From contig CAWBHS010000026.1 in the NCBI GenBank assembly GCA_963788655.1, forward strand, positions 6,262 through 70,261: 64,000 nt of DNA. Reading direction: 5' to 3'. Source of the DNA: an uncultured Verrucomicrobiae bacterium. Lineage in GTDB: Bacteria; Verrucomicrobiota; Verrucomicrobiia; Limisphaerales; JAFGQR01. Below the pieces are notes generated by a model. It had not been told where the DNA came from, searched no databases, and saw nothing but the letters and a program-made list of their open reading frames with translations. How positions within the stretch are numbered: the stretch's first letter is position 1; every line of letters starts with the position of its first letter. Shown here one piece after another: positions 4,454 to 26,525 of this stretch. A program made the position numbers and the translations under genes.

Positions 4454-5269
4454 CTACGAGTGCAAGGCGCTACTGAAAGCTCGGTGGAACTGCTCGGAGA
4501 TCGGGTGTCGAATGCCGAGGTGCTGGAAAATGGCTTTGCAGGCGGCTTTGGCGCCCTCATTGTCGTAATCGCGCTGACGTTGCAGCACCTCGATAAACGC
4601 CGCCAATGCTTTGGCGTAGTCGCCTTTCTTGGCCGCTTTCGCCCCCTCTACATAGCGGGCCCGCACGGGCGCCTCGGCCAGTTGATCCGGATGCTCCGCC
4701 ACGTCGGCAATCCGGGCCAGGGTGCGCAAGGCGGCGGCTTTGTCGGCAAACTCGGACTCAAGCCCGATGCCCGTCAGTAAATCCGCCACGCGCTGTGGTT
4801 GCGCGACCAAACAGCACTCGGCCAACAACAAGCGCGCCGGTTCGTTCGCCGGTTCGCTGGCCACCACCGGTTCCAACCGGGCCGCGGCTTCGGACGCCCG
4901 GCCTCCGGCCAACATCCCTTTGGCCTTGGCCAGCACCTCGGCGTTGGGTGAAGGCAGCGCCTGGTTGAGCCATTGGCGAACCTGGGGTTCCGGCAGGGCA
5001 CCGAGGAATTCATTGACCACCTTCCCCTGGTGAAAAAGCTTTACCGCCGGAATGCTCCGGATGTCGAACGCCATCGCCAGTTCCTCGTTTTCTTCGGTGT
5101 TGATCTTCACCAACTCCCATCGGCCCTGCGCTTCCGCCGCGAGCTTTTCGAGGATCGGCCCCAACGTTTTGCACGGTCCGCACCAGGGGGCCCAAAAATC
5201 CACCAGCACCGGGATTTGCTGGCTGCGTTTCAACACATCTTGCTCGAATGTTTTTACATCGTATTTCAT
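4454..5269 (-). CDS. thioredoxin-domain protein with C-terminal TPR-like helical domain (YbbN/CnoX-type co-chaperone)
   Basis: ORF 4454..5281; ATG at 5269 (MKYDVKTFEQDVL). Thioredoxin motif FWAPWCGPCKTLGPILEKL followed by an Ala-rich helical repeat region. Confidence 0.8.
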   Translation of the reverse strand: MKYDVKTFEQDVLKRSQQIPVLVDFWAPWCGPCKTLGPILEKLAAEAQGRWELVKINTEENEELAMAFDIRSIPAVKLFHQGKVVNEFLGALPEPQVRQWLNQALPSPNAEVLAKAKGMLAGGRASEAAARLEPVVASEPANEPARLLLAECCLVAQPQRVADLLTGIGLESEFADKAAALRTLARIADVAEHPDQLAEAPVRARYVEGAKAAKKGDYAKALAAFIEVLQRQRDYDNEGAKAACKAIFQHLGIRHPISEQFHRAFSSALHS

Positions 5270-5520: not shown

Positions 5521-6417
5521 TCACTTACGCACGCTCACGTGGTCGGCGGTCGGAAAATCCGCCGGCACTTTGGTTTGGGTTACCCGGCCCGTGGCCGCCC
5601 ATTCGGCGCCGCGTTGCAACGTGACGATGAAGCCGACGCACTTCATTTGTTGGGCCGCATGGCCCAGCACGGTGTGGAAGACCCGTCCCTTGCCGTAATT
5701 GATCGTGAACAGAATCGGTTCGTCGCGGCCGGTGGAGCCGTATTTGGGATCCTGGTAACCAGTGGCCAGCAAGGTCATGTTTTGCGCCGGACCGCGGAGC
5801 CGGCTGTACATTTCGTCTTTCACGTGCAGCCATTTTTCCGGCAATCCCTTGGTGATCGGATGCTCGTGATTGCGAATGGTCACCAGAAAATCGGTTTGCT
5901 GCCCGTGTGAGCCGCCGCTGCCGGGAGAATTATCGCGGACGATGTGGCCGTCTTTCCAATACACGTAGGGCCCACTTTTCTCGTTGCGGCCGCCCCAGCC
6001 ACCCAGCCCGATCATTTCGTTCCATGCTTTCCAGTTAGGAAAGGCGTTGTCCGCCGCGTGAACGACGACCAGTCCCCCGCCGTTTTTCATGTAGGCGACC
6101 AGCGCGGCCTTGGTTGCCTGCGGCCATTCGTCGCCGTTGTAGTTAGACACGATAACATCGTATTTGGCCCAGTCCGGTTTGAAGTTGGCCATCGCTTGCT
6201 TGTTCTGCGGAGTAGTAGCCACGTCCACCGTCATGAGGCCGGTTGCTTCAAGGATGCGTTTGAGCTCGGGCGTGGTGCCTTTCCAATCGTGATTGTTCTG
6301 GCCATCCACGATCAGGGCTTTGAGTGAAGGTTCAGCCGCCGGGGACGAAGCGGCCCCGAGATGCAAGGTCCAGCAAGCCATCAAGCCCGCCAACAAGAAT
6401 CGAAAATTTGGTTTCAT
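5521..6417 (-). CDS. ThuA-domain protein (trehalose-utilisation-like), secreted
   Basis: ORF 5521..6780. The plausible start is ATG 6417, giving signal peptide MKPNFRFLLAGLMACWTLHLGAAS. ThuA-like blocks KALIVDGQNNHDWKGTTP and GGGLVVVHAADNAFPNWKAWNEMIGLGGWGGR. Confidence 0.8.
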   Translation of the reverse strand: MKPNFRFLLAGLMACWTLHLGAASSPAAEPSLKALIVDGQNNHDWKGTTPELKRILEATGLMTVDVATTPQNKQAMANFKPDWAKYDVIVSNYNGDEWPQATKAALVAYMKNGGGLVVVHAADNAFPNWKAWNEMIGLGGWGGRNEKSGPYVYWKDGHIVRDNSPGSGGSHGQQTDFLVTIRNHEHPITKGLPEKWLHVKDEMYSRLRGPAQNMTLLATGYQDPKYGSTGRDEPILFTINYGKGRVFHTVLGHAAQQMKCVGFIVTLQRGAEWAATGRVTQTKVPADFPTADHVSVRK

Positions 6418-6712
6418 TATGGCATGGTCGGAAAAAGTTGGAGGTTTGGAAATGCAAAATTTCTCCGTTTCACACCCCCTGCGAGACGCACGGAACAATT
6501 TGGCGCTTCCCCCAATTAGGGGCCGGTTGCACAATGGCGCCGTGAAACGCAAAGCCACTTTGAAACGTTCTGCAAAGGGAGACGCGCGGAGTTGGGAGTC
6601 ACTCTTCCGTTCAACCGGGGCGCATTGCTGCCAGAAGGCACGACTTTTAACCGGCATCTTCCAACGGGCTCGCAGTCCATTCATAACGGCACTGATAATT
6701 TCCTGGGCAACC

Positions 6713-8504
6713 ATGCTTGCCAGTTGGACGCCGACAGTGCTGGCGGCAGTTTCGCACCCGGATCCCCGCGACTTCGCCAATGGCCGACTGATTCCGGACG
6801 AAGACTATTGCGATCAACCGCGCATCGTGGTGACGCACGATGGCACGTGGGTCTGCCTAATGACTACAGGCCCCGGTCGCGAAGGTGCCGGCGGACAACA
6901 CGTCGTGGCAACGCGGAGCACCGACCAGGGAAAAACGTGGTTCCCTCGGGTCGATGTCGAACCGGGCCAGGAGCCCAAATCCGCTTATGCCCTGGCGCTG
7001 GTGACTCCCCAGGACCGGATCTATGCCTTCTATTGTTACAATGGCGACCGCATCCGCACCCTGCCCAACGGCAAACCGATCCGGGACGACATGCAAGGTT
7101 GGTTTTGCTACCGCTATTCGGATGATCAAGGCCGGACCTGGTCGCCGCGCTATCGGCTGCCCATGCGGCTTACCGCAGCGGACCGCAACAACGACTGGCA
7201 CGGCAAGCTCCAGATGTTCTGGGCGATTGGTACTCCGGCGATTTTTGGGAACACGGCCATGTTTGGCTTCACCAAACTGGGCCAATACATTCTCCAGGAT
7301 GGTGAAGGTTGGTTTTATCGTTCGGATAATATCCTCACCGAAACCGATCCCGCGAAACTGCAATGGGAATTGCTGCCGGACGGTGACCATGGCGTGCGCG
7401 CGCCGGAGTTTGGTTCGGTGCAGGAGGAATTCGACGTGGTTCATCTGGCCGGGGACGGATTGGTTTTGCGTTTATCGCACCACGCTCGGGCATGCCGCGT
7501 GTTCCTACAGTCACAACGGCGGTCATACGTGGGAAAAGCCTGAGGCCCTACGCTACACACCGGGTGGCGCCGTGGTGAAACAACCACGCGCTTGCACGAA
7601 AATTTGGAAGACTCGCAGCGGGCACTATTTGCTGTGGTATCACAACAACGGCACCCAGACCTACAACAACGGACCCAATGCCGGCAGCCGTAATCTCGCC
7701 TGGTTGAGCGGCGGCACCCTTCGCGACGGTCGCTTGCAATGGTCGCAGCCGGAACTGGTAGCCTACGTGGACGGCGGCTTGGAAGGGTGCAGTTACCCGG
7801 ACTTGATCGAAGCGGGTGGCAAGTTTTACATCTGTGCCACGCAAAAAACCGAGGCCCGCATCCTTGAAGTCGCGCCCGAACTGCTGACCGGAATTTGGAA
7901 CCAGGATGCCGCCCGCACGGTGGTGACCAACGGCCTGGTGCTGGATCTATCCGCCGAAAAACTGGCCGGCAATTCAACGGTGCCCGCCCCGCGGCTGCCC
8001 TGGCTTTGCGGCTCCAATCCGACCCGCCCGCCCGCCGGCCAAAATCGCGGAGGATTTTCCCTTGAACTGGCGGTGAGGCTGACGGATCTCTCGCCAGGGC
8101 AGGTGCTTCTGGATGCGCGCGACGACAGCGGTAAAGGCTTTGCCTTGGTGACCACCGGTCACGGGGCAGTGCGACTGGAACTGAATGATGGTTGGCGCGG
8201 CGCTTTTTGGGATTGCGATCGCGGGCTGCTCGACACGAACACGGTCCATCACCTGGTTGCCATCGTGGATGGTGGTCCCGACTTGATCACCTACGTCGTC
8301 GATGGCCGGCTTTGCGATGGCGGCTCGGCGCGGTTGTTTGGTTATGGTCGTTTCGATCCGGCAATGAAAGAAGTCAACGGCGCCCGCGCGTTGCAGCTTG
8401 CCCCGAACTTGCACGGTCGATTGGAACGGCTCCGCATCTACAACCGCGCGTTGCGCACCAGTGAGGCAATCGGGAATTATCGTGCCAACCTTTCCCCAAG
8501 GTAG
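6713..8504 (+). CDS. BNR/Asp-box sialidase-like beta-propeller fused to a LamG/concanavalin-type domain; 1 frameshift ~7465
   Basis: Asp-box motifs STDQGKTW, SDDQGRTW, SHNGGHTW. C-terminus HHLVAIVDGGPDLITYVVDGRL...LRIYNRALRTSEAIGNY. ORFs 6293..7543 and 7023..8504 join at ggattggttttgcg. Start (ATG 6713) is uncertain. Confidence 0.65.
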
Positions 8505-8560: not shown

Positions 8561-9040
8561 GAGCGTGCCGCCGGCATCCGGCCGGCAGTGCGAACGGTGG
8601 ATGGGGCCTCGAACGGAACGCAAAGCTTGAGCGCACCCACCGCGATCGTTTCTTCCGGCGAGACGCCGGAAGCACGTTGCCAGCGTGCTGCCGGCATCTG
8701 GCCGGCAGTGCGAACGGTGGATGGGGCCTCGAACGGAACGCAAAGCTTGAGCGCACCCACCGCGATCGTTTCTTCCGGCGGGACGCCGGAAGCACGTTGC
8801 CAGCGTGCTGCCGGCATCTGGCCGGCAGTGCGAACGGTGGATGGGGCCTCGAACGGAACGCAAAACTTGAGCGCACCCACCGCGATCGTTTCTTCCGGCG
8901 GGACGCCGGAAGCACGTTGCCAGCGTGCTGCCGGCATCTGGCCGGCAGTGCGAACGGTGGATGGGGCCTCGAACGGAACGCAAAGCTTGAGCGCACCCAC
9001 CGCGATCGTTTCTTCCGGCGAGACGCCGGAAGCACGTTGC
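8561..9040. repeat. tandem array, 4 x 120 bp, near-identical units built from three GC-rich hairpins
   Basis: Units 8561-8680, 8681-8800, 8801-8920 and 8921-9040 differ at only a handful of positions. Each holds ctgccgg-catctgg-ccggcag, cttccggcg-gga-cgccggaag and agcacg-ttgccag-cgtgct (the last spans the unit junction). Confidence 0.9.
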
Positions 9041-10333: not shown

Positions 10334-12861
10334 ATGGTGCCGCGGTGGCTTGGGATTGCCTTTTGGCTAACGGTCGCATCGGTCAGCATGGAATTCCAGG
10401 GCGGCGACTCCAGCGACCGCCACGGCATCCTGGTCGTTCGAATCAGGACTGGACCATTGGAAGCCCCGCGCCGACACCATCCACCTCACGCACGTTGCCG
10501 CCGCCGGCGCCGCGTCCAATTCCCAGGGCTTCCTTCACATTGCGGGCACAATTACTACCGGATGGAATTATGCGCTCTCCGAACCGTTTCCCTTGGAAAC
10601 CGGCAAGCTATATCGCTGCTCCGCCTGGGTGCGCGTGACGGCGCTTGGGTCCAACACGCCCGTACCGTACTTGAAATGCGAGTTCGTGGGCGAGGATTCC
10701 ACCGCCAATCCCGGCCAGGTTCACACGGACACTTACAACTCCCGAAAGCTCGACACCTGGCAGGAATTGACGGTCGAGTTTGAAGTGCCTGCCGGCACCC
10801 GCCACGGCTGGCTGGCTTTGGAAAAGGGGACCCGGCAGCCAGCCTCCATCGAGGCGGACCTGGACGAAATCACCGTTCGCCCCATCGAACGGCTGAGCGT
10901 GTTTGACCAATTCCGTCTGGCGCCTTTGCCGGCCACGTTGGAACAGGTGCGGGGCGTGCATCCGCGGCTTTACCTCGATGCCCAACAAATTGTCGCGCTA
11001 CGCGAAGCCATCACTTCGACGCATTCGAATCTCTGGCGCGAAGTGCGCGAGCAGGCGGACCGCGCCGTCAAACAAGGACCACCAGCCTACCGGGAGGACG
11101 ACGGTTGGAGCGGTGACGAGCAACTGTGGCAGCGGTCGGTGGGCAACACGATGCCCACGCTGGCGCTGGCCTACTTGCTCAGCGATAACACGAATTACCT
11201 GAATAGCGCCCGCGATTGGGCCCTGGCGTCGTGCGCCTATCCAACCTGGGGCCTGGGGCGCATTGACGGTTTGGACCTGGCGGCGGGACATCAATTGTTC
11301 GGCTTGGCGATCGTTTATGACTGGTGCTACGAGGACTTGGGCGAGGCCGCGCGGCAACGGATTCGCGAGACGCTGACCCGGCGGGGCCAGGCCATGTTTG
11401 AAGCGGCGGCAACCGGCCGGGCCTGGTGGCGGCGTGCCTATTTGCAGAATCATTTGTGGGTGAATGCCTGCGGGCTTGCGGCGGCGGGCTTGGCGATCTT
11501 CGATGAAAATGAAGAAGCCAATTTATGGATTGGTCTCAGCCTCGACAAGTTTCGCCAAGACCATGACCGCGCTCGGACCCGACGGCGCCAGCCACGAGGG
11601 CGTGGGTTATTGGGAATATGGGGTCGAGTATTTGCTGAAGTTCATGCACCTCGCGCGTCAGCGATTGGAGGTGAATTTGTTCGATAACGACTGGTGGCGG
11701 CGCACCGCCAGCTACGCGATCTACCTGGGTTTGCCCCGGCAGGCTTGGACCCGGAGCAATTGCATCGTGGATATCGCCGATTGCCCACGTGGGCATTGGT
11801 ATGGTCCGGACCATTTGCTGCGCGCCCTGGCCCGGGAGTACCGGGACGCGAACGCCCAGTGGCTGGCCCGGGAAATCGACCAGGCGGACGTCGCGGCTTC
11901 GAGCGCGCCTTGGCTCAACGTGTTGTGGTACGATCCCACCGTCCCGGCGCTCTCGCTCAACGCGCTCCCGACGCTGCACCATTTCGACGACCTGGAAATT
12001 GTGAGCGCGCGTTCGGGATGGTCCGGCAACGAATCACTGGTCGTGTTCAAGTGCGGTCCGTTTATCGGGCACAAGGGCGTCCAGGAGTTCAGCTACGATC
12101 CGGGCGGCGGGCACGTGCATCCGGACGCCAATCATTTTGTGGTGTTCGGTGCGGGCGAATGGTTGATCCGCGACGACGGTTACCGCGCCAAATGGACGGG
12201 ACAACACAACACCCTGCTGGTCGATGGCGAAGGCCAGATGGGCGAGGGAAACCAGTGGTTCGACGGCACCGTGCCGCTGGCGGCCAAAGCGCAACCGGCG
12301 ATCACCCGCGTCTTTTCGAGCCGGACTTTTGATCATATCGTTGGCGACGCGGCGGCCGCTTATCCGGCGCGTCTGGGGGTGCGGCGCTTCCAGCGGCAAT
12401 TGCTGTTCCTCAAGCCGGATGTGCTGCTGGTGGTGGATGACATACAACTGGACGAACCGCGCACCTTGGAATTGAGGTTCCACCCCGAAGCGACCGAATT
12501 CAAACGGCAAGAGCGCGCTTTTGTTTTCCAGGAGCCTCGGGCCGTCCTGCGTCTGGAATCGCTCGTTCCCGTGGCAGTGGGCATCGATGCCGCAGCCCTC
12601 CCGGCGGCGGGACGGCACGGCGAGCAGGACCAAACCATGTTCGCGGTGCGTTTGCAGACGGAAGCAGCCCAATGGCGCACGGCGGTCGCGTTATCGTGGG
12701 CGCCGACGAACCAGCCACCCAAAAAGGTCGTCCTCCAATCCGACGAAAACCTCTGGCGGTTTCAAGCCGGTACCAATACGTGCGAACTCGATTGGACCAC
12801 CGGAAAGGTGACCGTGAAGCCCTCCATTCCAGGGAACGGTACCGGCAAGCAAAAACCGTGA
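10334..12861 (+). CDS. heparinase II/III-family polysaccharide lyase with N-terminal CBM-like domain; about 2 frameshifts (~10385-10430, ~11553)
   Basis: HPRLYLDAQQIVALREAI..., LWQRSVGNTMPTLALAYLL, HQLFGLAIVYDWCY and NHLWVNACGLAAAGLA (alginate-lyase/DUF4962-like toroid), then GVGYWEYGVEYLLKF and GGGHVHPDANHFVVFGAGEWLIRDDGY (heparinase II/III C-domain). ORFs 10334.., 10593..11687 and 11464..12861. Confidence 0.7.
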
Positions 12862-16225: not shown

Positions 16226-16450
16226 ATGGGGGGCATGAGTATAGCTGAAGTTGAGAAAGAAGCGCTGGCCTTGCCGGAAAACGAACGGGCGCGTCTGGCG
16301 GCTTCGCTGCTCGAAACCTTGCCGCCACCACTAGCGGAAGTTTCCGATGAAGAGGTTTTTCAGCGCGCCAGGGACTTGGAGGATGGGCGCGCCAAAGAGA
16401 TATCCCATCAGGAGTTTGTCCGTCGGGTTGAACACGAGCGCCGACGATGA
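16226..16450 (+). CDS. type II antitoxin, putative addiction-module component (partner of ParE/RelE-type toxin)
   Basis: 74 aa. SIAEVEKEALALPENERARLAASLLETL...VSDEE...RRVEHERR pattern typical of this antitoxin class. The stop overlaps the next ATG (ATGA at 16447-16450). Alternative start ATG 16235. Confidence 0.65.
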   Translation: MGGMSIAEVEKEALALPENERARLAASLLETLPPPLAEVSDEEVFQRARDLEDGRAKEISHQEFVRRVEHERRR

Positions 16451-16812
16451 GGGTGGTTTACCACGCCGCCGTTCAGCAGGATATCAATCGGGCGTTGCAC
16501 TGTTACGACCAACTATCCGGTCGTCTCGGAGACGAGTTCTGGCAGGAACTAACGGCGTATATTGAAGCCGCCGCTGCCAATCCGCTGCGGTTTCATTCTT
16601 AATTGAAGGGTCTGCACCGTGCGAACTTGAAGCGGTTCCCTTATTCTTTTCTGTACCGAATTCTCTCTGATCGTATTCGCGTCATCGCCGTTCACCACCC
16701 AGCGATTCACATTAGGGAACAGATTGGGACGCCGGGTGAGGTCACCCGGCCTACCCGAGGGCGGGTTTGCGGCGTTGTAGGCCGGGGGCCCTCACCCGGC
16801 GAAAGCGGCTGA
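16447..16812 (+). pseudogene. ParE/RelE-family toxin interrupted by an in-frame TAA (16600-16602), with a REP element at its 3' end
   Basis: MRVVYHAAVQQDINRALHCYDQLSGRLGDEFWQELTAYIEAAAANPLRFHS-stop-LKGLHRANLKRFPYSFLYRILSDRIRVIAVHH, all in one frame (16447.. and ORF 16603..16812). KRFPYxxxYR...I.V.AV.H is the toxin core. The last ~80 nt are a 22-nt inverted-repeat REP (16731-16796). Confidence 0.65.
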
Positions 16813-16898: not shown

Positions 16899-19383
16899 AT
16901 GAAACAAGTTGGTTATGTCGCCCTCAATACTCTGCTGCTTGCCTTGTCTTGTGCGGCTCAGCAAATCCCCATCAACTCTTCCATCGCGTACGACGCGAAT
17001 GATCCCACCCACGCCATCGTGCTCACGTGGGAAGCGATTCCGACGAAGATACTACAACGTGTTGACGACGACCGCGCTGGGACAACAGCCCTGGACATCC
17101 CTTAATCCCAACCCGATCTACGCGTCCAACAACCTGGTGCGTTTCGCGGACACCAATGACCAGTCCGCGCGGTTCTACAAGGTGGTCAAACTGGACACGG
17201 ACCCGCCGGAGGTCTGGCGGGCGGCGCCGGGGGACGGCGCGATTGCCGTGGGACGGCAAAGCCCGCTGAAGGTATATCTGCAGGACGAAACGGCGATTGA
17301 TCCCACTTCGATTGCGTTGACGGTGGGCACCAACCCGCCGGCGACGCTGGCCGATGGACGACTGGCCTACGCGAATGGCATGCTCACCTACACTCCGGGC
17401 ACCAATGAGTTCCTGGGCAACTACGCCGCGACCGTGAGTTGCGCCCTGGCCGTGTCCGATACTCTGGGTCAGCGCGGAACCAACGCGTGGTCCTTCGGGC
17501 TCGAACTGGAAACGGTTCTGGCGGACAACGTGGTGCTGATTGGCAGTCCCCCGGGATTCGCCGCCAAAACCGCCGCCTTGGCCAGTTCCTCCGGGCTGAC
17601 GCTGGTGTCCACCAATGGAGCGACCTTTGTCTTCAGCTATACCGGCGCTTCTTCCGGGCTGACCAATGGCCAAGTCCTGGTGAGCACCGACCCGGCTCAT
17701 GCCTACAAACGAAAGATCATTTCGCTGGCCGACGATCCGGGAAACCAGACCGTCACCGTGGTTACCGAACAGGCTTCCTTGGCCGAGTGTGTCCAGCAGG
17801 GCAGCATTCGCCTGACCGGAGATTTTGCCGACTTGACCGGTGGGGGCGCTGGATTCTCCTCGATTGGCGCCACCATCTCCTTGGATGGGACCGAGTTGTT
17901 CGACAACGGTACGATCCGGGTGGAAGTGGTTTCCGGGCAAATCAGCTTCACGCCCGATTTCACCGTTTCCGGTGAGTTCGACTCCGGGCGTCTGGTTTCC
18001 TTCGATTCCGAGATCTCCGGCACGGTGGGCTTGGACATGACGCTGCGAGGGAGTTTCCAGGTGACCGGTGATTGGGACGGCACCAAACCCCTCATCACTC
18101 CCATCCGCAAGGTCAATGTTCTCGCTTGGATTGCGGTTATCCCGGTTTGGACCGAAGCGGTGATGGAGTTTGATATTGGTTACGAAGCGCAGGCCGAAGC
18201 GTTTGGGGAGGCGACGGCGGGCTTTACGTCCTCGCGGACAATGACTTTTGGCGCCCGGCTGCGCGATGGGAATTGGAGCATGTTCCGCGATGAGTCCTCG
18301 TCGTTTGTTCCTGTGCCGCCCTCGTGGTCGATCAATGGCGCGGCCAAGGTGGCGGTTTATGTGGAGCCGAAACTGACGGTGTATTTGGAGAGCCTGGCGG
18401 GGCTGTCGGCGAACTTGAAGCCGTATCTGGAGGCGGACGGCAAGGCATGTGTGGTGCCGGGGCAGGCGGGAGTGGACTTTTCGTTGTATGCGGGTTTGAG
18501 CAGCACGTTGGCGGTGGATGTCAGGGGTTGGGATGAGGACTGGGGGACGTTGCCTTCGTGGGAACTGTTCAATTTGCGCAAGCAAATCTACCATAAGAAC
18601 CTGACGACACCCACGGGGCCGCCACCAAATGTTCTGCCGGGCATGGTGTGGATTCCGTGCGGGAGATTTACCATGGGCAGCCCGGAGAGCGAGCCGGCGC
18701 GTTATTCCAACGAAACCCAGCATGAGGTGACGATCAGCCGGGGGTTTTGGATGGGGAAGTATGAGGTAACTCAGGCGGAGTACCAAGCGGTGATGGGGAG
18801 CAATCCGAGCTATTTCCAGGGAGCCAACCTGCCGGTGGAAACAGTCAGTTGGCATGATGCGGTGGCGTATTGTGCGGCGTTGACGGCGCGGGAGCAGGCG
18901 GCGGGGCGGTTGCCCGCAGGGTATGTGTATCGGTTACCGACGGAGGCGCAGTGGGAGTATGCGTGCCGGGCCGGGACGACCACGCCGTTCCATTACGGGA
19001 ACGCGTTGCGTTCGGGGATGGCGAACTTTGATGGCCGTTACGAATATCCACCGTGCGGGAGTGACTACTATGGCTGCTACAACCCCGGCGGCACCTACCT
19101 GGGGCGAACGACTTCGGTGGGGAGCTATGCGCCGAACGCGTGGGGATTTTATGACATGCACGGGAATGTGTGGGAGTGGTGTGCGGACTGGTATGGGGCG
19201 TACCGATGCGGGGCCCGTGACGGATCCTGTGGGGCCTGCCACGGGCTCGCACCGCGTGGTCCGCGGCGGCTATTGGCACTCCCTCGCCAGGTACTGCCGG
19301 TCAGCGGGTCGCGGCCACGACTACCCGGACTACTGGTACGGCAACTCGGGTTCCGGGTGGTGCTGGTCCCAGGTCAGCCATGA
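16899..19383 (+). CDS. DGR target protein: secreted Ig-like/beta-rich surface protein with C-terminal FGE-sulfatase (C-type-lectin fold) domain carrying VR; about 3 frame changes (~17047, ~19205, ~19346)
   Basis: Signal peptide MKQVGYVALNTLLLALSCAAQQ (ORF 16875..). Main ORF 16909..19383. FGE-domain blocks MVWIPCGRFTMGSPE, EVTQAEYQAVMGSNPS, PVETVSWHDAVAYC, RLPTEAQWEYACRAG, YDMHGNVWEWCADWY. Frame +1 gives GSHRVVRGGYWHSLARYCRSAGRG.. and the gene ends GFRVVLVPGQP. Confidence 0.8.
19241..19353 (+). repeat. DGR variable repeat (VR)
   Basis: Aligns to 21228-21341 with one 1-nt gap. Examples TR->VR: AAC AAC AAC -> CAC TCC CTC, AAC->GGC, AAC->TAC, AGG->TGG. Flanks acgggctcg and gggttccg are identical. 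Confidence 0.75.
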
Positions 19384-19560
19384 GCTGGAAGGGGCGGCGG
19401 AGCGGCGCCGGAGCAGTCGAGGCGGGGCGAGGGACGAGCGAAGCCTGACTGCGGAGAGGCAGCGGAGCGACAATGCAAACGTAGCGGCGAAGATGAAAAA
19501 GCCCCGCGCAGCGGTCGCGATTTTTTTCCAAAATCGCGCGTGCCTTTCCGGCTCCCGCCC

Positions 19561-19624
19561 GGAGCGCGGACATTCTTGTCCGCCTTCCGCGCCGTCCGCT
19601 CGTCAGCGGACAAGAATTTTCCGC
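19561..19624. repeat. REP-like inverted repeat (ggagcgcggacattcttgtccgc family)
   Basis: Arm 19561-19583 and partner gcggacaagaattttccgc at 19606-19624. The same family recurs at 20147-20216. Confidence 0.7.
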
Positions 19625-19714
19625 ACCGATCGGCGCTCCTGTGAGTGAGGCCGCCATGCAACTGAAAGCTGTTCGTGCTCCCGATCAAGAACCTCGCCGC
19701 CGCGGAAGGGCGAG

Positions 19715-20119
19715 ATGAATGCGTTCCTGCGCGGGCACCGGGTGCTGGCGGTGAAGAAAGAATTCGTGCCGGACGGGGAGAACTCCTTCTGGACTTTTTG
19801 CGTGGAATTCCTGGACGGGGCGCCTGGGGGAGCATTACCCACGGGCAGCAAGCGGCCCAAGGTGGATTACAAGGAGGTGCTGAAGCCGGAGGAATTCGAG
19901 GTGTTCAGCCGGCTGCGCGAGTGGCGCAAGGCCGTGGCGGAGAAGGAAGGGGTGCCGGTGTATGTGGTGCTCAGCAATGAGCAACTGGCTGAAATGGTGC
20001 GGCGGCGGGCCTCCAGCAAAGCCCAACTGAAAGAGATCGAAGGCGTGGGCGACGCCCGCATCGAGAAATACGGCGCGGCGCTGCTGGAGCGGCTCGTTTT
20101 CAATCCGGTACCTGAATGA
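19715..20119 (+). CDS. HRDC-domain protein, putative DGR accessory factor
   Basis: 134 aa. C-terminal half PEEFEVFSRLREWRKAVAEKEGVPVYVVLSNEQLAEMVRRRASSKAQLKEIEGVGDARIEKYGAALLE matches the HRDC pattern of RecQ/RNase D. It sits between the VR gene and the RT. GGAAGGG lies upstream of the ATG. Confidence 0.75.
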   Translation: MNAFLRGHRVLAVKKEFVPDGENSFWTFCVEFLDGAPGGALPTGSKRPKVDYKEVLKPEEFEVFSRLREWRKAVAEKEGVPVYVVLSNEQLAEMVRRRASSKAQLKEIEGVGDARIEKYGAALLERLVFNPVPE

Positions 20120-20146
20120 GAGGAGCGCGCGAGCCGGTGCCGGCCT

Positions 20147-20216
20147 GGAGCGCGGACATTCTTGTCCGCTTGGGCGCCCCACCCGCGCCGGATGCGGACA
20201 GGAATGTCCGCGCTCC
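20147..20216. repeat. REP-like 23-nt inverted repeat filling the HRDC-RT spacer
   Basis: ggagcgcggacattcttgtccgc (20147-20169) and gcggacaggaatgtccgcgctcc (20194-20216): one mismatch, 24-nt loop. Confidence 0.8.
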
Positions 20217-20225
20217 GCCCCCGGC

Positions 20226-21370
20226 ATGAGACGCGCGGGCCAACTCCTGGCGGCCATCGCCGACCCCGCCAACCTGCGGCTGGCCTTTTGGAAAGCGGCC
20301 AAAGGGAAACGCAGCAGGGCGGACTGCCGGGCCTTTCAAGAGGAACTGGACGCGAACCTCGCGGCCCTTCGCGACGATTTGCTGGCGGGCCAGGCGCGGG
20401 CGGGAGCCTACCACTACTTCACCATTCACGATCCCAAGGAGCGCACGATTTGCGCGGCCAGCTTCCGCGAACGGGTGTTGCACCACGCGCTGATGAACGT
20501 CTGCGAGCCGGTGCTGGAGCGGGCGGCCATCTTCGATAGTTATGCCTGCCGGAAAGGCAAGGGCAACTGGCGGCGGTACGGCGCGCCGAGACCTTTTCCC
20601 GGCAATACGGCTGGTTCCTCAAAATGGATGTGCGCAAGTACTTCGATTCGGTGGCCCACGGTGTCTTGCGCGGATTGCTGGGCCGGAAGTTCAAGGACGC
20701 AGCCGTCCTGGCTTTGTTCGACCAAGTGCTGGCCAGCTACCACACGACACGCGGATGCGGCCTGCCGATCGGGAATCTGACCTCGCAGCACTTCGCCAAT
20801 TTCTACCTGGCGCCGCTGGACCGGTTCCTCAAGGAGCATCTGCGGCGCCGGGCTTACGTGCGCTACATGGATGATTTCGTGGTTTGGGGTGACAGCGGCG
20901 CCGAACTGCGCGCCGTGTGGCGGGCGGTGGGAACGTTTCTTTCGGCGGAGTTGCGGCTGGAGTTAAAACCGACCGTGGCGTTGAACAAGACCGCCTTCGG
21001 CATGGATTTTCTCGGCTACCGGCTTTTTCCGTGTGACCTCCGCCTGGCCCGCCGGAGTCAACTGCGTTTTGCCCGCAAGTTCCGCCGCTATGAGCGCGAG
21101 CATCGGGAGGGGCGCTGGACGGAGCGGCAATTGGAGCAGCGGATGCAGGCGCTGGTGGCCTTCACCCTGCCCGCCCGTAGCCGGGACTGGCGAGTCCACG
21201 TCATGCACCGATTTGGGGTGGCAACCAACGGGCTCGAACCGCGTGATCCGCGGGGGCAGTTGGAACAACAACGCGAACAACTGCCGGTCGGCGAACCGCA
21301 ACCACAACAACCCGACGAACAGGAACAACAATATCGGGTTCCGAGTTGTCCTGGCCCCAGCTCAACCTGA
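20226..21370 (+). CDS. DGR-type reverse transcriptase; 1 frameshift ~20563
   Basis: ORF 20226..20780 (…[22 protein letters not shown]…SYACRKGKG) joins ORF 20624..21370 through frame-3 text [30 protein letters not shown]. Also [16 protein letters not shown] (DGR hallmark) and [12 protein letters not shown] (catalytic YxDD). Confidence 0.85.
21228..21341 (+). repeat. DGR template repeat (TR), embedded in the RT 3' end in another frame
   Basis: ~35 A in 114 nt, 14 AAC codons. Translates (frame of ORF 21033..21446) to [38 protein letters not shown], a consensus-like FGE/CLec C-terminus. Confidence 0.75.
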
Positions 21371-21900
21371 GCGTTGGACGACGCTCCGGCTGACCCGGCT
21401 GCCATCCTGTCCGCGAGGCTCGCTGTTTCGCGGCAAAGAGCAGTGAACGAAGGCCCGGTGTGAGTAGTGGAGCGGACGCTTCGCGAAAGCTCCGGGCTTT
21501 TCACTGGCGCCCAGCGAACCCGCCGCCACACGCCCTGATGCCGGTTTAGCCGCCGGTGGACGTGAGCGGTTTCGGATGGGGGACAGTTCTTGGTATGGTA
21601 CGCGGTTCTTGATAGTGGCAAATACTTGCCAGGCTTCTTCCCTTGATCCAGCCGAGGCTTCGCATGGCGATCCGCTGCAATTCCTCCGCAAAGGGAAACA
21701 TGTAAATCTCCCATTGCTTCATGCGTCGAGGACCGGCTTGGAGCCGCGACAGATTCGTTCTTCAAAACGGGCATCATCGGGATCGGCATAGCACGAGGCA
21801 AAGTAACCCGATGGACGTATCGGATTTCCTTCGTTGTTAAACCAATCTATCCATTGATATTCGCGCTTGCGAGTGTGCAGCCGGGACGGCATGGTTGGGC

Positions 21901-22119
21901 ATGACCTGTGTTGGAAAAGTCGAGAAGGGAACCGTGGTGCTCCCACCGGAAGTCAAACTGCCGGACGGCACAGAGGTCGTGGTGAGCATTCCGGAATCGA
22001 CGGCGGGCGGTCCAACCTTTGCCGAACGGTATAAAGCGTTCATTGGCATGGCCGACGATTTGCCGGAAGATCTTGCCCTAAACCTCGACCACTATTTGCA
22101 TGGCCACCCGAAGAAATGA
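21901..22119 (+). CDS. VapB-like antitoxin (small beta-rich DNA-binding type)
   Basis: ORF 21895..22119; ATG 21901 (MTCVGKVEKGTVVLPPEVKLPDGTEVVVSIPE). The stop overlaps the vapC ATG (ATGA at 22116-22119). Confidence 0.55.
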   Translation: MTCVGKVEKGTVVLPPEVKLPDGTEVVVSIPESTAGGPTFAERYKAFIGMADDLPEDLALNLDHYLHGHPKK

Positions 22120-22517
22120 AACCCGTCTTCGTGGATTCGTTTTACTTCGTTGCCTGTCTTAACCGTCATGACCAGCATCACGAAAAGGCGATGACTTCTG
22201 CGCGCCAGCCAATGGGGCCGATGATTACGACTCGCTGGGTGTTGATGGAAGTTGCCGATGCTCTGGCTGCTTCCACTTGCCGCAAGCAAATGGCAGCCTT
22301 CATTTCCGCCTTGGAGGCAGACGCCAATGTTCGGCTTGTTGAGGCGCAGCTAAACCTTTTCCAACGCGGATTGGAACTTTACGACCAGCGGCCGGACAAG
22401 GCGTGGACATTGACCGATTGCATCTCATTTGTCGTGATGGCTGATGAAGGTTTGACGGATGCCCTCACGGGAGACCACCACTTTGAGCAGGCAGGGTTCA
22501 AGGCTTTGCTCAGATAG
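22116..22517 (+). CDS. vapC: PIN-domain ribonuclease toxin VapC
   Basis: 133 aa. MKPVFVDSFYFVA (first acidic residue), LMEVADAL, TLTDCISFVVM and TGDHHFEQAGF follow the PIN acidic-residue pattern. Confidence 0.8.
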   Translation: MKPVFVDSFYFVACLNRHDQHHEKAMTSARQPMGPMITTRWVLMEVADALAASTCRKQMAAFISALEADANVRLVEAQLNLFQRGLELYDQRPDKAWTLTDCISFVVMADEGLTDALTGDHHFEQAGFKALLR

Positions 22518-22622: not shown

Positions 22623-25600
22623 TCACAGCACTGCCAGCAATTTCCTTATCTCATTCAACCGCGCTTTGGCGGTGGTTTTAGTCAGACGGGGGAACTTGCC
22701 GTGCAGCATGATGTAATCATTGTAGCGGGTCAGTTTGAGCTTGTCCTCCTGGGTTTCGATGGAACTGATGCCTTTGGCGCTGGCAATTAACTTCAGGGTG
22801 CTGACTTGCAATAGCAATTGCACCGGCTCGGGCAACGGACCGAACCGGTCGCGCATTTCGCCTTTCAATTGTTCCAGCGATTCGTCGTCGGTGATTTCGG
22901 CCAGCTTGCGGTAGATCTCCAGCCGGTGTTGCGGGTCAGCAATGTAATTCAGCGGGATGAACGCGCCGGCTTTCTGGACGACTGGTGCTGATCGTGGCGA
23001 CTTGTCGGAAGCAGGTTCGTCGGCCTCGCTGATATACGTTGCGGTTTCACGGGGCACGTTGATTTCAAGATCGGTATTGCGTTGGCCGCGACCTTTCTTT
23101 TGCTGCTTGCATTGGGTCGCCTGCGCTTCGGCGGCGGCGGCTTCACCGGCACTGGCGGCCAGGAAATCCAATCGCACCACCACTTCGACGCGCGGTTTGA
23201 CCTTTTCGCCTTTAAGCGTCGCCACGCTTTGCTTGAGCAACTGGCAGTAAAGCTCGAAACCCACGGCGGTGATGTGGCCGCTTTGCTCGGCGCCCAGCAG
23301 GTTGCCGGCGCCGCGGATTTCGAGGTCGCGCATGGCGATTTTGAAGCCGCTGCCGAGCGTGGAGTATTGCTTGATGGCGCTGATGCGTTTGCGCACGTCG
23401 GTCAGCAGGCTGGCGTGGCGCGGCAGCAGCAGATAGGCGTAAGCCTGATGTTTGTAGCGGCCCACGCGGCCGCGCAATTGGTAAAGGTCGCTCAGGCCGA
23501 ACCGGTCGGCGCGGTCGATGATGATGGTGTTGGCGTTCGGAATGTCGAGGCCGCTCTCGATGATGCGTCGTGGAAAGCAGCACGTCGGCTTCGCCGTTGA
23601 CAAACTTGGCCATCACTTCCTCCAGGTCGTCGCTCGTGCATCTGGCCGTGGCCGACGACAATGCGCGCCTGGGGCACCAGCGTCCGCCAGACGTGTGCGC
23701 CACAGTCATCGATCGTCGATCACGCGGTTGTGCAGGAAGAAGACCTGGCCGCCGCGGTTCAATTCGCGCTGGATGGCATCGCGGATGACGCGCTCGTCGT
23801 ATTGCGACACGATGGTTTCCACCGGCAGCCGGTCATGCGGCGGCGTCTGGATGGTGCTCATGTCGCGGGCGCCGGTGAGCGCCAGGTAAAGCGTGCGCGG
23901 AATCGGCGTGGCGCTCAGCGTGAGCACATCCACCAGCTGGCGCAGCATCTTGAACTTCTCCTTGTGCAACACGCCGAACCGCTGTTCCTCGTCGATGACC
24001 ACCAGGCCGAGGTCCTTGAACACGATGTCGCTTCTGCACCAGGCGGTGCGTGCCGATGACGATGTCCACCGCGCCGGTCGCCAGATCACGCACGACGCGC
24101 TGCCTGGTTCCGGCGGGTGCGGAAGCGGGAGAGCAGTTCGATGCGGATCGGATAATCCGCCATGCGCTCGCGGAACGTGTTGAAATGCTGCTGCGCCAGC
24201 ACGGTGGTCGGCACGAGCATGGCCACCTGTTTGCCGTCCATCACCGCTTTGAACGCGGCGCGAATGGCGACTTCGGTTTTGCCGAAGCCCACGTCGCCGC
24301 AGATCAGACGGTCCATCGGCTTGGGCCGTTCCATGTCGGACTTGGTTTCGACGATGGCGCGCATTTGGTCGGGCGTTTCCTCGTAGATGAACGCGCTTTC
24401 GAACTCGCGCTGCCAGGGCGTGTCCGCGGGAAAGGCGTGGCCGGCTGCGATTCGCGCGCGGCCTGGATGGACAGCAAGCTCAGCGGCGACATCCCGCACC
24501 GCTTTCTCCGCTTGTTCCTTGGCTTTGTTCCAGCGCGTGCCGCCGAGCGTGTTCAGCGGCGGACGCGCTTTGCCGGCGCCGACGTATTTGCTGACCAGAT
24601 GGGCTTCGGTAACGGGCACGTAGAGGTTTGGGCGCCGGCTGCGTCGGAGTCGCGCGGCGCATATTCGATCACCAGGCATTCCTGGCCTGACTCCGGCAAC
24701 GGACGCGGCGTGGCGCCTCCGGTCGCCGGCTTGTGCCGGTCGGCGGCGGCAGAAGCTTCAAGCCCAGGTAACGTCCGATGCCGTGCTGCACATGAACGAC
24801 GTAATCGCCTTCTTCCAGATCCGTGAAATCAATGTCAAGCGCCGAGCGCGTCGCCTGGGCGTGCGGCGATTTCAGCCGGCGCGGTCGCTGCACTTTGTAG
24901 CGCCCGAAGATCTCCGCGTCGGTGACCACGACCAGTTTCGCCGAGTCGCTAAGAAATCCGCGGGTTAAGGCGCCCAGGTGCAACACAGGCGGAGCGCCTC
25001 GACCGCGGCCAAGGGATGCAGTCCTTTTTGCGTCAACGGCCGATGAAGCGTTTTCCGGGAGTGAGTTGCCTGTGTCGGTACTAGGAAGTCGAGGAGCTGA
25101 ACCGGCATCACCCAACCCATATTCCTCCCAAATTTCATGGAACCGCTGACGTTCGCCGTCGTTGTTGCAAAAGACATGGACTTGGTAGCTCTGGCGCAGC
25201 CACCGGTGCAATTGGGCGAAAAACTCGCGGCGTTGTGCTTCGGCGATGGCTGGTTCCGGCGCGCGATCCACGATGGGCCGGAAGGCGTCGAGAGACGAGA
25301 AGGCGAGGTTGCCAAGCGCCGCATCCAACGGTCCCACGCTGGCTTCCGATGTATCCAATGGCGCAGCAGATGGCTCGCTGGCAGATGCCAATTCGTCGTC
25401 AGGTGGAAGTAGTGCTTCGCCTGCGAAACCAGCGACCACGGATTCCTCCGCGGACAGTTCTAATTGCGTCATTCCCCGGTCGGCCAGTTCACTCCTGAAG
25501 TCTTCCCAATCGATATGAAACGAATCCTCCTCCGGCACCAGATCGGCGTAGCTGCCCGCGGTTTCAGCCAGTGCTTCCGGTTCGCACAACAGCCAGATCG

Positions 25601-26525
25601 CCGCGCGCGGCAAGTAATCCAGTAACGTGGCGAGCGCAGGGGGATGGTTACTTGTTGAGGGTTGATGGGACGATGCTGGTGGACCGGCGGTATCAGCTTT
25701 CAAGGCCAGTTCCTTTTTCAACACGCCCAGTTCCCCGGCAGGGGAAAGCAGAACGCTCGTGATGGGCTCCCGCGACATTTGGCTGATGGGATCAAAGAAC
25801 CGCAGCGACTCGACTTCGTTGCCGAAGAATTCCAGCCGGACCGGCCAGGGACTGGTGGGCGGAAAAATGTCCAGGATGCCACCGCGCAAGGCGATTTCGC
25901 CTTTGTGGTTAACCTGCGCTTCCGGCTCGTAGCCCAAGTCTTCCAGCCACTCGATCAAGTCGAGCGGATTGATTGGATCGCCGCGTTGCACGGTACGAAT
26001 GCGCTGCCGCAATTGTTGCGGCGGGTAGGTGCGCTGGAGCAACGCGGTCACGCTGGCCACCACGATGGGTGACGCGGAAATGTCCGAGCCCGAGGTCGCA
26101 ACAGTCGCGACCGACGACAAGGCAGCCAGAGTTTCCAGGCGCTCGCTAATGACGTCCACGTGCGGGAGTTTACCTTCGTGCGGCAGCACTTCCCAGGCGG
26201 GATAGAACAGGAGTTGTGAGCTCTGGTTTGCTGGCGGGGAATCAGCGGTGTTTCCATTTTGGCTCGCTCCATACTTCAGCCACGTGGTGATGTCCTGATG
26301 ATGACTCTCCTGCGTCTTCAAGCCCTCGGCCACCACGATGACCGGACGTTGGGGAAACAACCGATGCAAGAGCACCGCCAGGAAAGGTTGCGCACCCGCG
26401 CTGACGCCACCGCAGGGCAAAACACTCCCCTGCTCCAGTCGCTGTGCCATCGCCTGCACGGTGGGAGTTTGCGCTGCCGCGGCGAACAAATCGTTTGCCA
26501 CCGTCCTGGATTTCCTGGACGCCAA
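22623..26525 (-). CDS. mfd: transcription-repair coupling factor Mfd, broken by about 9 frame changes as assembled
   Basis: Fragments 24669..26525 (N-terminal/UvrB-like, [20 protein letters not shown]), 24086..24679 ([14 protein letters not shown]; [11 protein letters not shown] Walker A), 23706..24089 ([11 protein letters not shown]; [12 protein letters not shown]), 23212..23709, 23492..23677 (VGHGQM) and 22623..23603 ([18 protein letters not shown]; YQLRGRVGR). Confidence 0.85.

Follow-up and report, generated by a model that had tools for sequence, protein, structure and literature searches.

A probable chromosomal diversity-generating retroelement with an HRDC accessory gene in a Verrucomicrobiota genome

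What kind of element is encoded at positions 16899-21370 of a 64-kb stretch of contig CAWBHS010000026.1 from an uncultured Verrucomicrobiae bacterium (hereafter the window, meaning the whole stretch analysed), and is its variable repeat (VR) the product of the adjacent template repeat (TR)? A preliminary description, made from the letters of the window, had proposed a diversity-generating retroelement (DGR) consisting of a surface protein with the VR, an HRDC accessory gene, a reverse transcriptase (RT) and the TR. All four components and their order were upheld by Pfam, PDB matches and TR/VR alignment. The order on the plus strand, to which all features of the cassette described here belong, is the target gene with the C-terminal VR, the HRDC gene, the RT gene, the TR at the RT 3' end and a structured RNA, with which the cassette was extended to 21510. 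We favor, with a probability of about 80%, the explanation that a Verrucomicrobiota (Limisphaerales-like) metagenome-assembled genome (MAG) carries at this locus a chromosomal DGR belonging to the HRDC-accessory clade. The DGR features found are the RT type, an adenine-biased TR/VR pair, a C-type-lectin target, a pair of initiation of mutagenic homing elements (IMH for the VR and IMH* for the TR) and an accessory gene.

Reverse transcriptase, repeats, target and accessory gene

The RT gene (20226-21370) encodes 381 aa after one frame correction near 20558, and the product matches RVT_1 of Pfam and 8ub7_A of PDB. It reads MRRAGQ...SYACRKGKG in one frame from 20226 and then continues in the -1 frame to 21370, and all the RT motifs pointed out previously were found with this single frame change. 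The frame break corresponds to a 1-nt deletion in an A run, which is GGCAAAGGGC in a related cassette on the soil-metagenome contig k127_1712038 (L001) and GGC-AAGGGC in the window. The last 45 or so codons of the gene run through the TR in another frame. The closest RT relatives are 84% identical at 100% coverage and also have 381 aa, and more than 5,000 database relatives were found at E <= 1e-20.

The type of the RT was examined against all PDB sequences. The match to 8ub7_A had an E value of 6.4e-48 over residues 6-295, compared with 3e-15 for group II intron RTs, and retron-type entries were weaker than the latter. According to the list of catalytic and template-contacting residues published for the Bordetella bRT (10.1101/2023.10.23.563531), with which the residue numbering of 8ub7_A agrees, the RT keeps K29, F66, R74, I76, D138, I181, G182, Q187, D215 and D216. 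Its PIGNLTSQ (the IGxxxSQ box) and YMDD align with I181, G182, Q187 and D215/D216 of bRT. Judged by these PDB sequence matches, the RT appears to belong with the DGR RT clade, as had been proposed.

The TR (21226-21367) is composed of a variable part (21229-21333) and an IMH* (21334-21367) ending in CAGCTCA, and the VR (19239-19379) of a variable part (approximately 19242-19345) and a constant IMH-like part (19346-19379) ending in the VR-specific CAGGTCA. Formal local alignment connected TR 21229-21341 with VR 19242-19353 with a single 1-nt gap. In this 113-nt part, 23 of 34 TR adenines are mismatched, compared with 9 of 79 non-adenine positions (Fisher p = 4.3e-9); the earlier hand count of about 22/35 and 9/79 was very close to these values. 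The nine non-adenine mismatches consist of eight substitutions and the gap. All 34 TR adenines are located at codon position 1 or 2 of the VR frame (19, 15 and 0 at the three positions, respectively), and 13 AAC codons are present. The TR and VR translations given previously were reproduced exactly, and the VR, which is read in the +1 frame from the flanking open reading frame (ORF), gives GSHRVVRGGYWHSLARYCRSAGRGHDYPDYWYGN. When both strands of the window were scanned at the TR non-adenine positions, 19239-19379 was the only VR found; it matches the TR at 68 of 87 such positions, while the next best site matches at 44 of 87 and the background is 24 +/- 4.4.

Could the locus instead be a group II intron or retron-type RT that happens to lie next to a chance repeat? 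The palm and fingers fold of RVT_1 is common to these RTs and that of the window, and the best NCBIfam match by name is a group II RT/maturase model with 107 bits. This score is far under the 300-bit cut-off of the model (TIGR04416), and the NCBIfam models for group II, retron and DRT RTs are all far below their own cut-offs on the window RT. Similarity to group II and retron RTs is 1e-15 or worse, the Bordetella DGR RT leading the structure-database matches by 33 orders of magnitude, and the window RT has SQ in place of the group II template-binding-box motif. Rfam scans of the cassette gave no group II intron RNA and, at gathering thresholds or at E <= 1, no family at all; maturase and endonuclease domains, intron RNA and msr/msd were not found in the cassette. 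The adenine bias (p = 4e-9), the 8ub7_A match and the architecture kept in about 80 loci, which is described below, rule out this candidate, and we regard it as extremely improbable. Neither a lack of adenine bias nor an affinity of the RT to group II or retron RTs, both named in the preliminary description as outcomes that would refute it, was found. A sigma-70 promoter scan also gave no match.

The target gene (16899-19383) encodes about 830 aa after three frame corrections, and has a signal-like segment, Ig-like/all-beta modules and a C-terminal FGE-sulfatase/C-type-lectin domain with the VR. The FGE-sulfatase/C-type-lectin end proposed previously was supported by Pfam FGE-sulfatase with an E value of 1.3e-52 (residues 580-821 of the reconstruction). 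This domain of about 240 residues runs to the last residues of the target, and the C-terminus matches formylglycine-generating enzymes and Treponema denticola TvpA (2y3c, E 5e-25). Big_5 was found as a weak Pfam match. The 824-aa gene of the preliminary description is present as an ORF (16909-19383), but it is a mechanical ORF in which the VR is read out of frame. The VR is read correctly only at a +1 offset from the flanking ORF on both sides; this frame is entered through an extra C after TAC near 19205 and left through a missing base at 19345. A signal-peptide-like start, ATG 16899, lies in a frame different from both of these, and a shift near 17040 leads from it into the main frame. MK..LLL..AAA and LTWEAIPTK are both part of the alignment with the L001 orthologue, which covers the full length. 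In L001 itself, an in-frame stop (WEWC*DWYG) is found at 5109-5111 of that contig, about 50 nt before the VR, and the called target gene ends ahead of the VR; yet the TR/VR pair is canonical, with one or two non-adenine differences.

The N-terminal 570 or so residues of the target were found only in about 60 Verrucomicrobiota/Limisphaerales proteins. An AlphaFold2 model of nt 17050-18627 was all-beta with Ig-like domains (pLDDT 84.6), and a fold search of this model against PDB returned generic matches of the Ig/CopC/NCAM types only. Within it, nt 17900-18620 (residues ~340-570) is modelled with high confidence as about ten beta strands of 15-23 residues without a significant PDB match, and this module is confined to about 60 Verrucomicrobiota DGR targets. 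The name "surface protein" has the N-terminal signal-like segment and the Ig-like domains as its sole basis; together with the all-beta model, these are consistent with, and not proof of, an exported target.

The HRDC identity of the accessory gene (19657-20119) was confirmed by Pfam (E 8.8e-21). An intact ORF of 134 aa starts at ATG 19715. As judged by reference to the 153-aa HRDC gene of L001, two 1-nt insertions, at 19668 and 19711, interrupt the first 19 codons, which are conserved (MQLK / VLPIKNLAAAEG / EMNAF...). By codon-usage frame plot, no coding signal for an Avd-sized gene was detected in 19381-19735 or 21298-21925.

Relatives of the cassette and structures 3' of TR and VR

A scan with one genome per species returned 78 loci, and the clade was defined from about 80 loci. 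The 78 loci are mostly from Verrucomicrobiota, and Planctomycetota, Bacteroidota, Desulfobacterota, Acidobacteriota and others are also represented. RT relatives in these MAGs have identities of 84-38%, and in 77 of 82 loci the RT is immediately preceded by an HRDC gene. Where a TR/VR pair could be detected, the TR starts at about residue 335 of the RT, where the RT domain ends, and the VR is located about 1.2-3.2 kb, typically 1.7-1.8 kb, upstream of the TR. The contig of L001 has the order of FGE target, HRDC and RT found in the window. Cassettes of Verrucomicrobiota and the wider PVC (Planctomycetes-Verrucomicrobia-Chlamydiae) group in public MAGs and metagenomes (L001, L022 and L060) share with the window the gene order, the codon layout of the TR, the IMH discriminator and the 3' RNA, and cassettes of this type are 79-84% (RT), 85-88% (HRDC) and about 60-68% (target) identical to it. 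They differ from it in having 0-2 non-adenine TR/VR differences and mostly intact genes, whereas the window has 11 such differences, six frameshifts and an extra 110-nt palindrome.

The position of the IMH pair was revised by these relatives. Divergence right after gggttccg had been taken as an IMH/IMH* pair, but in more than 20 relatives the stretch of about 30 nt from GG(G/T)TTCCG to CCCCAG is identical in TR and VR. The first fixed TR/VR difference in the family is CAGGTCA in the VR versus CAGCTCA in the TR, after which the sequences diverge, and the window has this discriminator. Since the stretch after gggttccg is identical in relatives, divergence there is an anomaly of the window copy and not an IMH pair. 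A metagenome scan with the 32-nt IMH of the window gave no match, and a scan with the TR non-adenine scaffold gave two unrelated VRs only.

About 150 nt following the TR are conserved across phyla. RNAalifold, applied to a structure-blind MAFFT alignment of 23 loci, gave 28 pairs in five helices, and 19 of the pairs have compensatory changes; 93.3% of the alignment cells are paired, compared with 27-54% in slid controls, and none of 500 shuffles reached the observed values. Helix 1 is formed by the TR end (CCAGCTCAACC) and GGCTGACCCGG, which is almost invariant, with a covarying hairpin between them. The conserved GTGnGAGTAG and CGAAAGCT lie within helix 4 (GGCCCGG/CCGGGCC), and a conserved GGCAAA is also enclosed by further helices. 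A covariance model, R1, built from this alignment gave matches in about 65 of 79 loci, in each case immediately behind the TR and on the strand of the RT. Its one match in the window, with 153.2 bits (E 6e-46), places the structured RNA at 21347-21510, directly 3' of the TR and overlapping its end. This segment has no Rfam match even at E <= 1. In Bordetella, the primer is supplied by the RNA that immediately follows the TR and base-pairs with its end, and the published survey of DGR RNA elements covered Avd-containing DGRs only (10.1101/2023.10.23.563531). By analogy, we infer that the RNA would serve the HRDC clade as a platform for priming and protein binding.

A second structure is located on the VR side. 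Inverted repeats of studied DGRs follow the IMH and not the IMH*. In the window, a stem-loop (GCAGTCGAGGC...GCCTGACTGC, with the conserved loop GGAGCGAGGGACGAGCG) lies at 19413-19452, 34 nt 3' of the end of VR homology; it was seen in the fold of 19340-19480, and its loop and stems are conserved in relatives. Of the alignment cells, 77% are paired compared with 30-46% in slid controls, and nine of ten pairs have compensatory changes, which is moderate support because the structure was drawn from the window sequence. The bulk fold of the region after the VR has a z score of only -0.9, and the view of this region as unstructured, based on that score, was overturned by the comparative analysis from which the hairpin emerged. 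The hairpin is likely to be the counterpart of the inverted repeat following the IMH in studied DGRs.

Several cassettes can be present in one genome. A Planctomycetia MAG, MFD01231.bin.2.30, carries at least five (L035, L036, L037, L073 and L077) with identical scores for the RNA 3' of the TR, and L037 has two convergent copies of this RNA element 1.5 kb apart, at 7116-7279 (+) and 8738-8901 (-). These cassettes point to recent duplication of the whole DGR module within the genome.

Uncoupling of TR and VR and the frameshifts of this copy

Is the VR of the window a copy of its own TR? Non-adenine differences were counted for all combinations of the VRs and TRs from 17 loci. Own pairs have 0-2 differences in 14 loci, and non-cognate pairs have 4-36. 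Several observations on the window weigh against the favored explanation. Its own pair has 11 non-adenine differences plus the 1-nt gap, which is within the non-cognate range, while the foreign TRs of L029 and L060 each have seven differences from the window VR. Four mismatches fall within the stretch of about 30 nt that is normally identical between TR and VR. The share of differences facing TR adenines is about 72% in the variable part and 65% when the IMH part is included, and in nearly all DGRs at least 75% of TR/VR differences face adenines (PMC8144416). The number of 11 equals the maximum of non-adenine TR/VR differences in a survey of 372 DGRs (PMC5758913). In addition, the 4.5-kb cassette contains six frameshifts, three in the target gene (~17040, ~19205 and 19345), two in the HRDC gene (19668 and 19711) and one in the RT gene (~20558), and each of the three protein genes, as sequenced, is interrupted somewhere within its conserved length.

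Some of the non-adenine differences are departures of the TR from the family and others are departures of the VR. Six of the 11 are synonymous in the VR frame (GGG/GGC, GCG/GCC, TCG/TCA, the third position of AAC/GGT, GTT/GTG and GTC/GTG). Such differences cannot have arisen from indel-type sequencing errors or from adenine mutagenesis of the present TR. The window VR looks non-cognate to its own TR and is not a direct copy of the present TR; therefore, it was presumably last rewritten either from a different TR allele or long ago. Replacement of the RT-TR module is a possible source of the mismatch. Eroded pairs are also found in L029 (10 non-adenine differences and three gaps) and L010 (six non-adenine differences), and the TR fitting the L029 VR best is that of L060, not its own. 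Uncoupling of TR and VR may recur in the clade.

In this connection, an active cassette whose TR and adjacent VR are not partners, because a paralogous TR exists elsewhere, the true VR is remote, or both, should be considered. In the variable part, the window VR has nine non-adenine mismatches to its own TR and three to the TRs of L029 and L060 (11 and 7 overall), related genomes hold several cassettes (at least five loci in MFD01231.bin.2.30 and two in MFD03726.bin.2.4), and remote DGR targets have been documented (PMC5758913). Even the best foreign TR leaves seven mismatches, however, and no second TR, VR or TR-adjacent RNA was found in the 64 kb, so that we consider such an arrangement rather improbable. 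A still less probable source of the mismatch is an assembly chimera, that is, a consensus of two co-occurring strains in which TR and VR come from different canonical pairs. The abundance of indels in the consensus throughout the window points to a long-read assembly that is noisy or mixed, and L060 and L081, which come from the same kind of MAG collections, have broken RT matches too. Against a chimera, the non-adenine differences, synonymous ones included, are spread over the whole repeat without a block switch.

The frameshifts need to be explained separately. Similar splits affect housekeeping and other genes throughout the window: mfd (22623-26525, minus strand) is divided into at least four pieces matching consecutive positions of the mfd model, and frameshift-split genes on the plus strand include a heparinase II/III-like gene (10593-12861) and a BNR/sialidase-like gene (6293-8504). 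The codon-usage frame plot gives same-strand frame switches at many places across the window, and the sequence past each cassette frameshift is still open and conserved in comparison with L001. Because housekeeping genes are split likewise and the downstream sequences are conserved, we read the six frameshifts as probable indel errors of the assembly rather than decay of the element. A ParE/RelE-like toxin gene (16447-16812, plus strand) is also frameshift-split. Such an indel-rich assembly would be that of a noisy long-read MAG, or else the genome is unusually rich in pseudogenes.

If the frameshifts were real, the locus would be a decaying, inactive DGR relic, in which homing stopped long ago, TR and VR drifted apart and a frozen VR was left in a surviving target. 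Six frameshifts in 4.5 kb, the insertion of a 110-nt repeat element between HRDC and RT, and 11 non-adenine TR/VR differences with six synonymous ones, as under independent evolution with selection at the protein level, are what such a relic would have, and similar erosion is seen in L029 and L010, as is a stop just before the VR in the L001 target. We nevertheless regard a relic as unlikely. The density of frameshifts is equal in mfd and other genes of the window, and the frames past each shift are open and highly conserved. Moreover, no damage is seen in the catalytic residues of the RT, in the 13 AAC codons or in the RNA next to the TR, whose 153 bits are the second best of all loci; a long absence of selection would not be expected to leave them intact. 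Judged from their sequences, the RT, the TR and the TR-adjacent RNA look maintained, and current activity on the window VR is unproven. Since the RT, TR and RNA look maintained, we favor a DGR with working machinery that at present does not, or does not any more, produce the VR next to it.

Neighbouring features, known systems and meaning for the clade

The cassette is flanked by mfd and toxin-antitoxin (TA) modules, and when IMG/VR was searched with the RT no relative was found; these results indicate a cellular (chromosomal) context. Upstream, at 16226-16812, an addiction-module antitoxin and the ParE/RelE-like toxin are encoded; downstream, at 21895-22517, there are a small AbrB-like ORF and a PIN-domain-like ORF, both named by sequence appearance only. 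In L001, HicA/HicB are located on the same side of the target, and the other neighbours (UvrA and ThiC) differ from those of the window. Since the neighbours differ, the cassette occupies different chromosomal contexts.

Two copies of a palindromic repeat are present in the window. The degenerate copy 1 (19548-19625) lies between the target and HRDC genes and has a minimum free energy (MFE) of -39 kcal/mol (z -4.3); at the equivalent site L001 carries a perfect copy with a 23-bp stem. Copy 2 (20120-20225), with 23-nt arms that are 96% complementary and an MFE of -74 kcal/mol (z -7.8), is a 110-nt insertion between the HRDC and RT genes, which overlap in L001. The repeat is about 80-110 nt long, with the core GGAGCGCGGACATTCTTGTCCGC ... 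GCGGACA(A/G)GAATGTCCGCGCTCC, a 23-bp stem and -74 kcal/mol. Within the 64 kb it occurs at the DGR only, and other copies are found in L001 (5460-5530), L007 (1415-1505), L009 (4530-4595), L016 (195-225), L018 (95-125) and L081 (8940-8970). The copy of L007 is 90 nt long and is in frame inside the RT gene, right before YVRYMDD. The repeat behaves like a small mobile element of the REP (repetitive extragenic palindromic) or MITE (miniature inverted-repeat transposable element) kind that favors these cassettes. The idea that the GCGGACAnnnnTGTCCGC palindromes are a DGR cruciform was rejected, because their positions differ among loci and one is in frame inside the L007 RT gene. Another motif, GAAAAAGCCCCGCGCAGCGGTCGCGATTTTTTTCC, is located at 19495-19529 between the target and HRDC genes, and its sequence is conserved in many relatives, including L001, L005, L009, L012 and L013. 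It resembles a weak bidirectional terminator (an A run, a short GC stem and a T run), and its conservation exceeds what a terminator needs.

With the Bordetella BPP-1 DGR (mtd - avd - TR - brt; 8ub7), the window has in common the RT clade with the same catalytic, fingertip and IGxxxSQ residues, adenine-specific differences from TR to VR, a C-type-lectin target with a 3' VR, a GC-rich IMH, a structured RNA 3' of the TR that pairs with the TR end, and a hairpin that is 3' of the VR and not of the TR. The accessory gene is HRDC in the window and Avd in BPP-1. The TR comes after and overlaps the RT ORF in the former but precedes the RT in the latter. The target is of the FGE-sulfatase subtype with an N-terminal extension of about 570 aa, as opposed to the Mtd tail fibre, and the element is chromosomal, whereas that of BPP-1 is phage-borne. 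These four departures from the prototype (accessory, gene order, target subtype and chromosomal context) are common to dozens of unannotated relatives. In addition, the hairpin is 34 nt from the IMH in the window and adjacent to it in BPP-1. The cassette is of the HRDC-containing "Architecture C" (PMC5758913). The Treponema denticola DGR and the "Architecture C" HRDC DGRs share with the window the HRDC accessory, the FGE-sulfatase-type target (TvpA, 2y3c) and a non-phage context. The Treponema DGR belongs to another phylum, while the window represents about 80 loci with a single adjacent target and the fixed order of target, HRDC, RT and TR.

The locus would work in the manner of the Bordetella, Legionella and Treponema DGRs. 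By homology with the Bordetella phage system, from which priming, the role of HRDC and homing are inferred, the RT would bind a transcript that extends from the 3' end of its gene through the TR and into the structured RNA, and the HRDC protein would presumably stand in for Avd at this RT-RNA binding. The TR end would pair with the downstream RNA segment, cDNA synthesis would begin at the TR/IMH* boundary, and copying at adenines would be unfaithful. The cDNA would then replace the VR, guided by the shared GC-rich IMH of about 30 nt and probably also by the hairpin 3' of the VR. On the ligand-binding face of the C-type-lectin/FGE fold, 14 Asn codons and six further codons containing adenines would thereby be recoded. 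We tentatively suggest that HRDC-type (Avd-less) DGRs may have uncatalogued signals of their own, namely a covarying RNA fused to the TR for Avd-independent priming or RT-HRDC binding and a VR hairpin with a conserved loop, and that cassettes such as that of the window, with a VR fitting other TR alleles better than its own TR, may be a record of TRs being exchanged or used in trans among paralogous DGRs.

The locus adds one further member to a known kind of DGR, and calling it a DGR is itself routine; as one more among tens of thousands known, it has small significance by itself. Since more than 5,000 relatives of its RT are public, the high interest given to the locus in the preliminary description was too generous. 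For annotation, it should be kept in mind that the source assembly is rich in indel errors. What the analysis provides concerns the clade. The survey of Wu et al. (2018) listed no more than 14 DGRs with HRDC, in 11 different layouts (PMC5758913), and the group looked rare and architecturally confusing; the HRDC-accessory clade described here is large, crosses phyla and has one stable layout. The matrix of non-adenine scaffolds of VRs against TRs is a simple test for distinguishing coupled from uncoupled cassettes, and the window is clearly uncoupled by it. The RNA 3' of the TR, which is absent from Rfam, is a concrete RNA with which Avd-independent priming can be tested.

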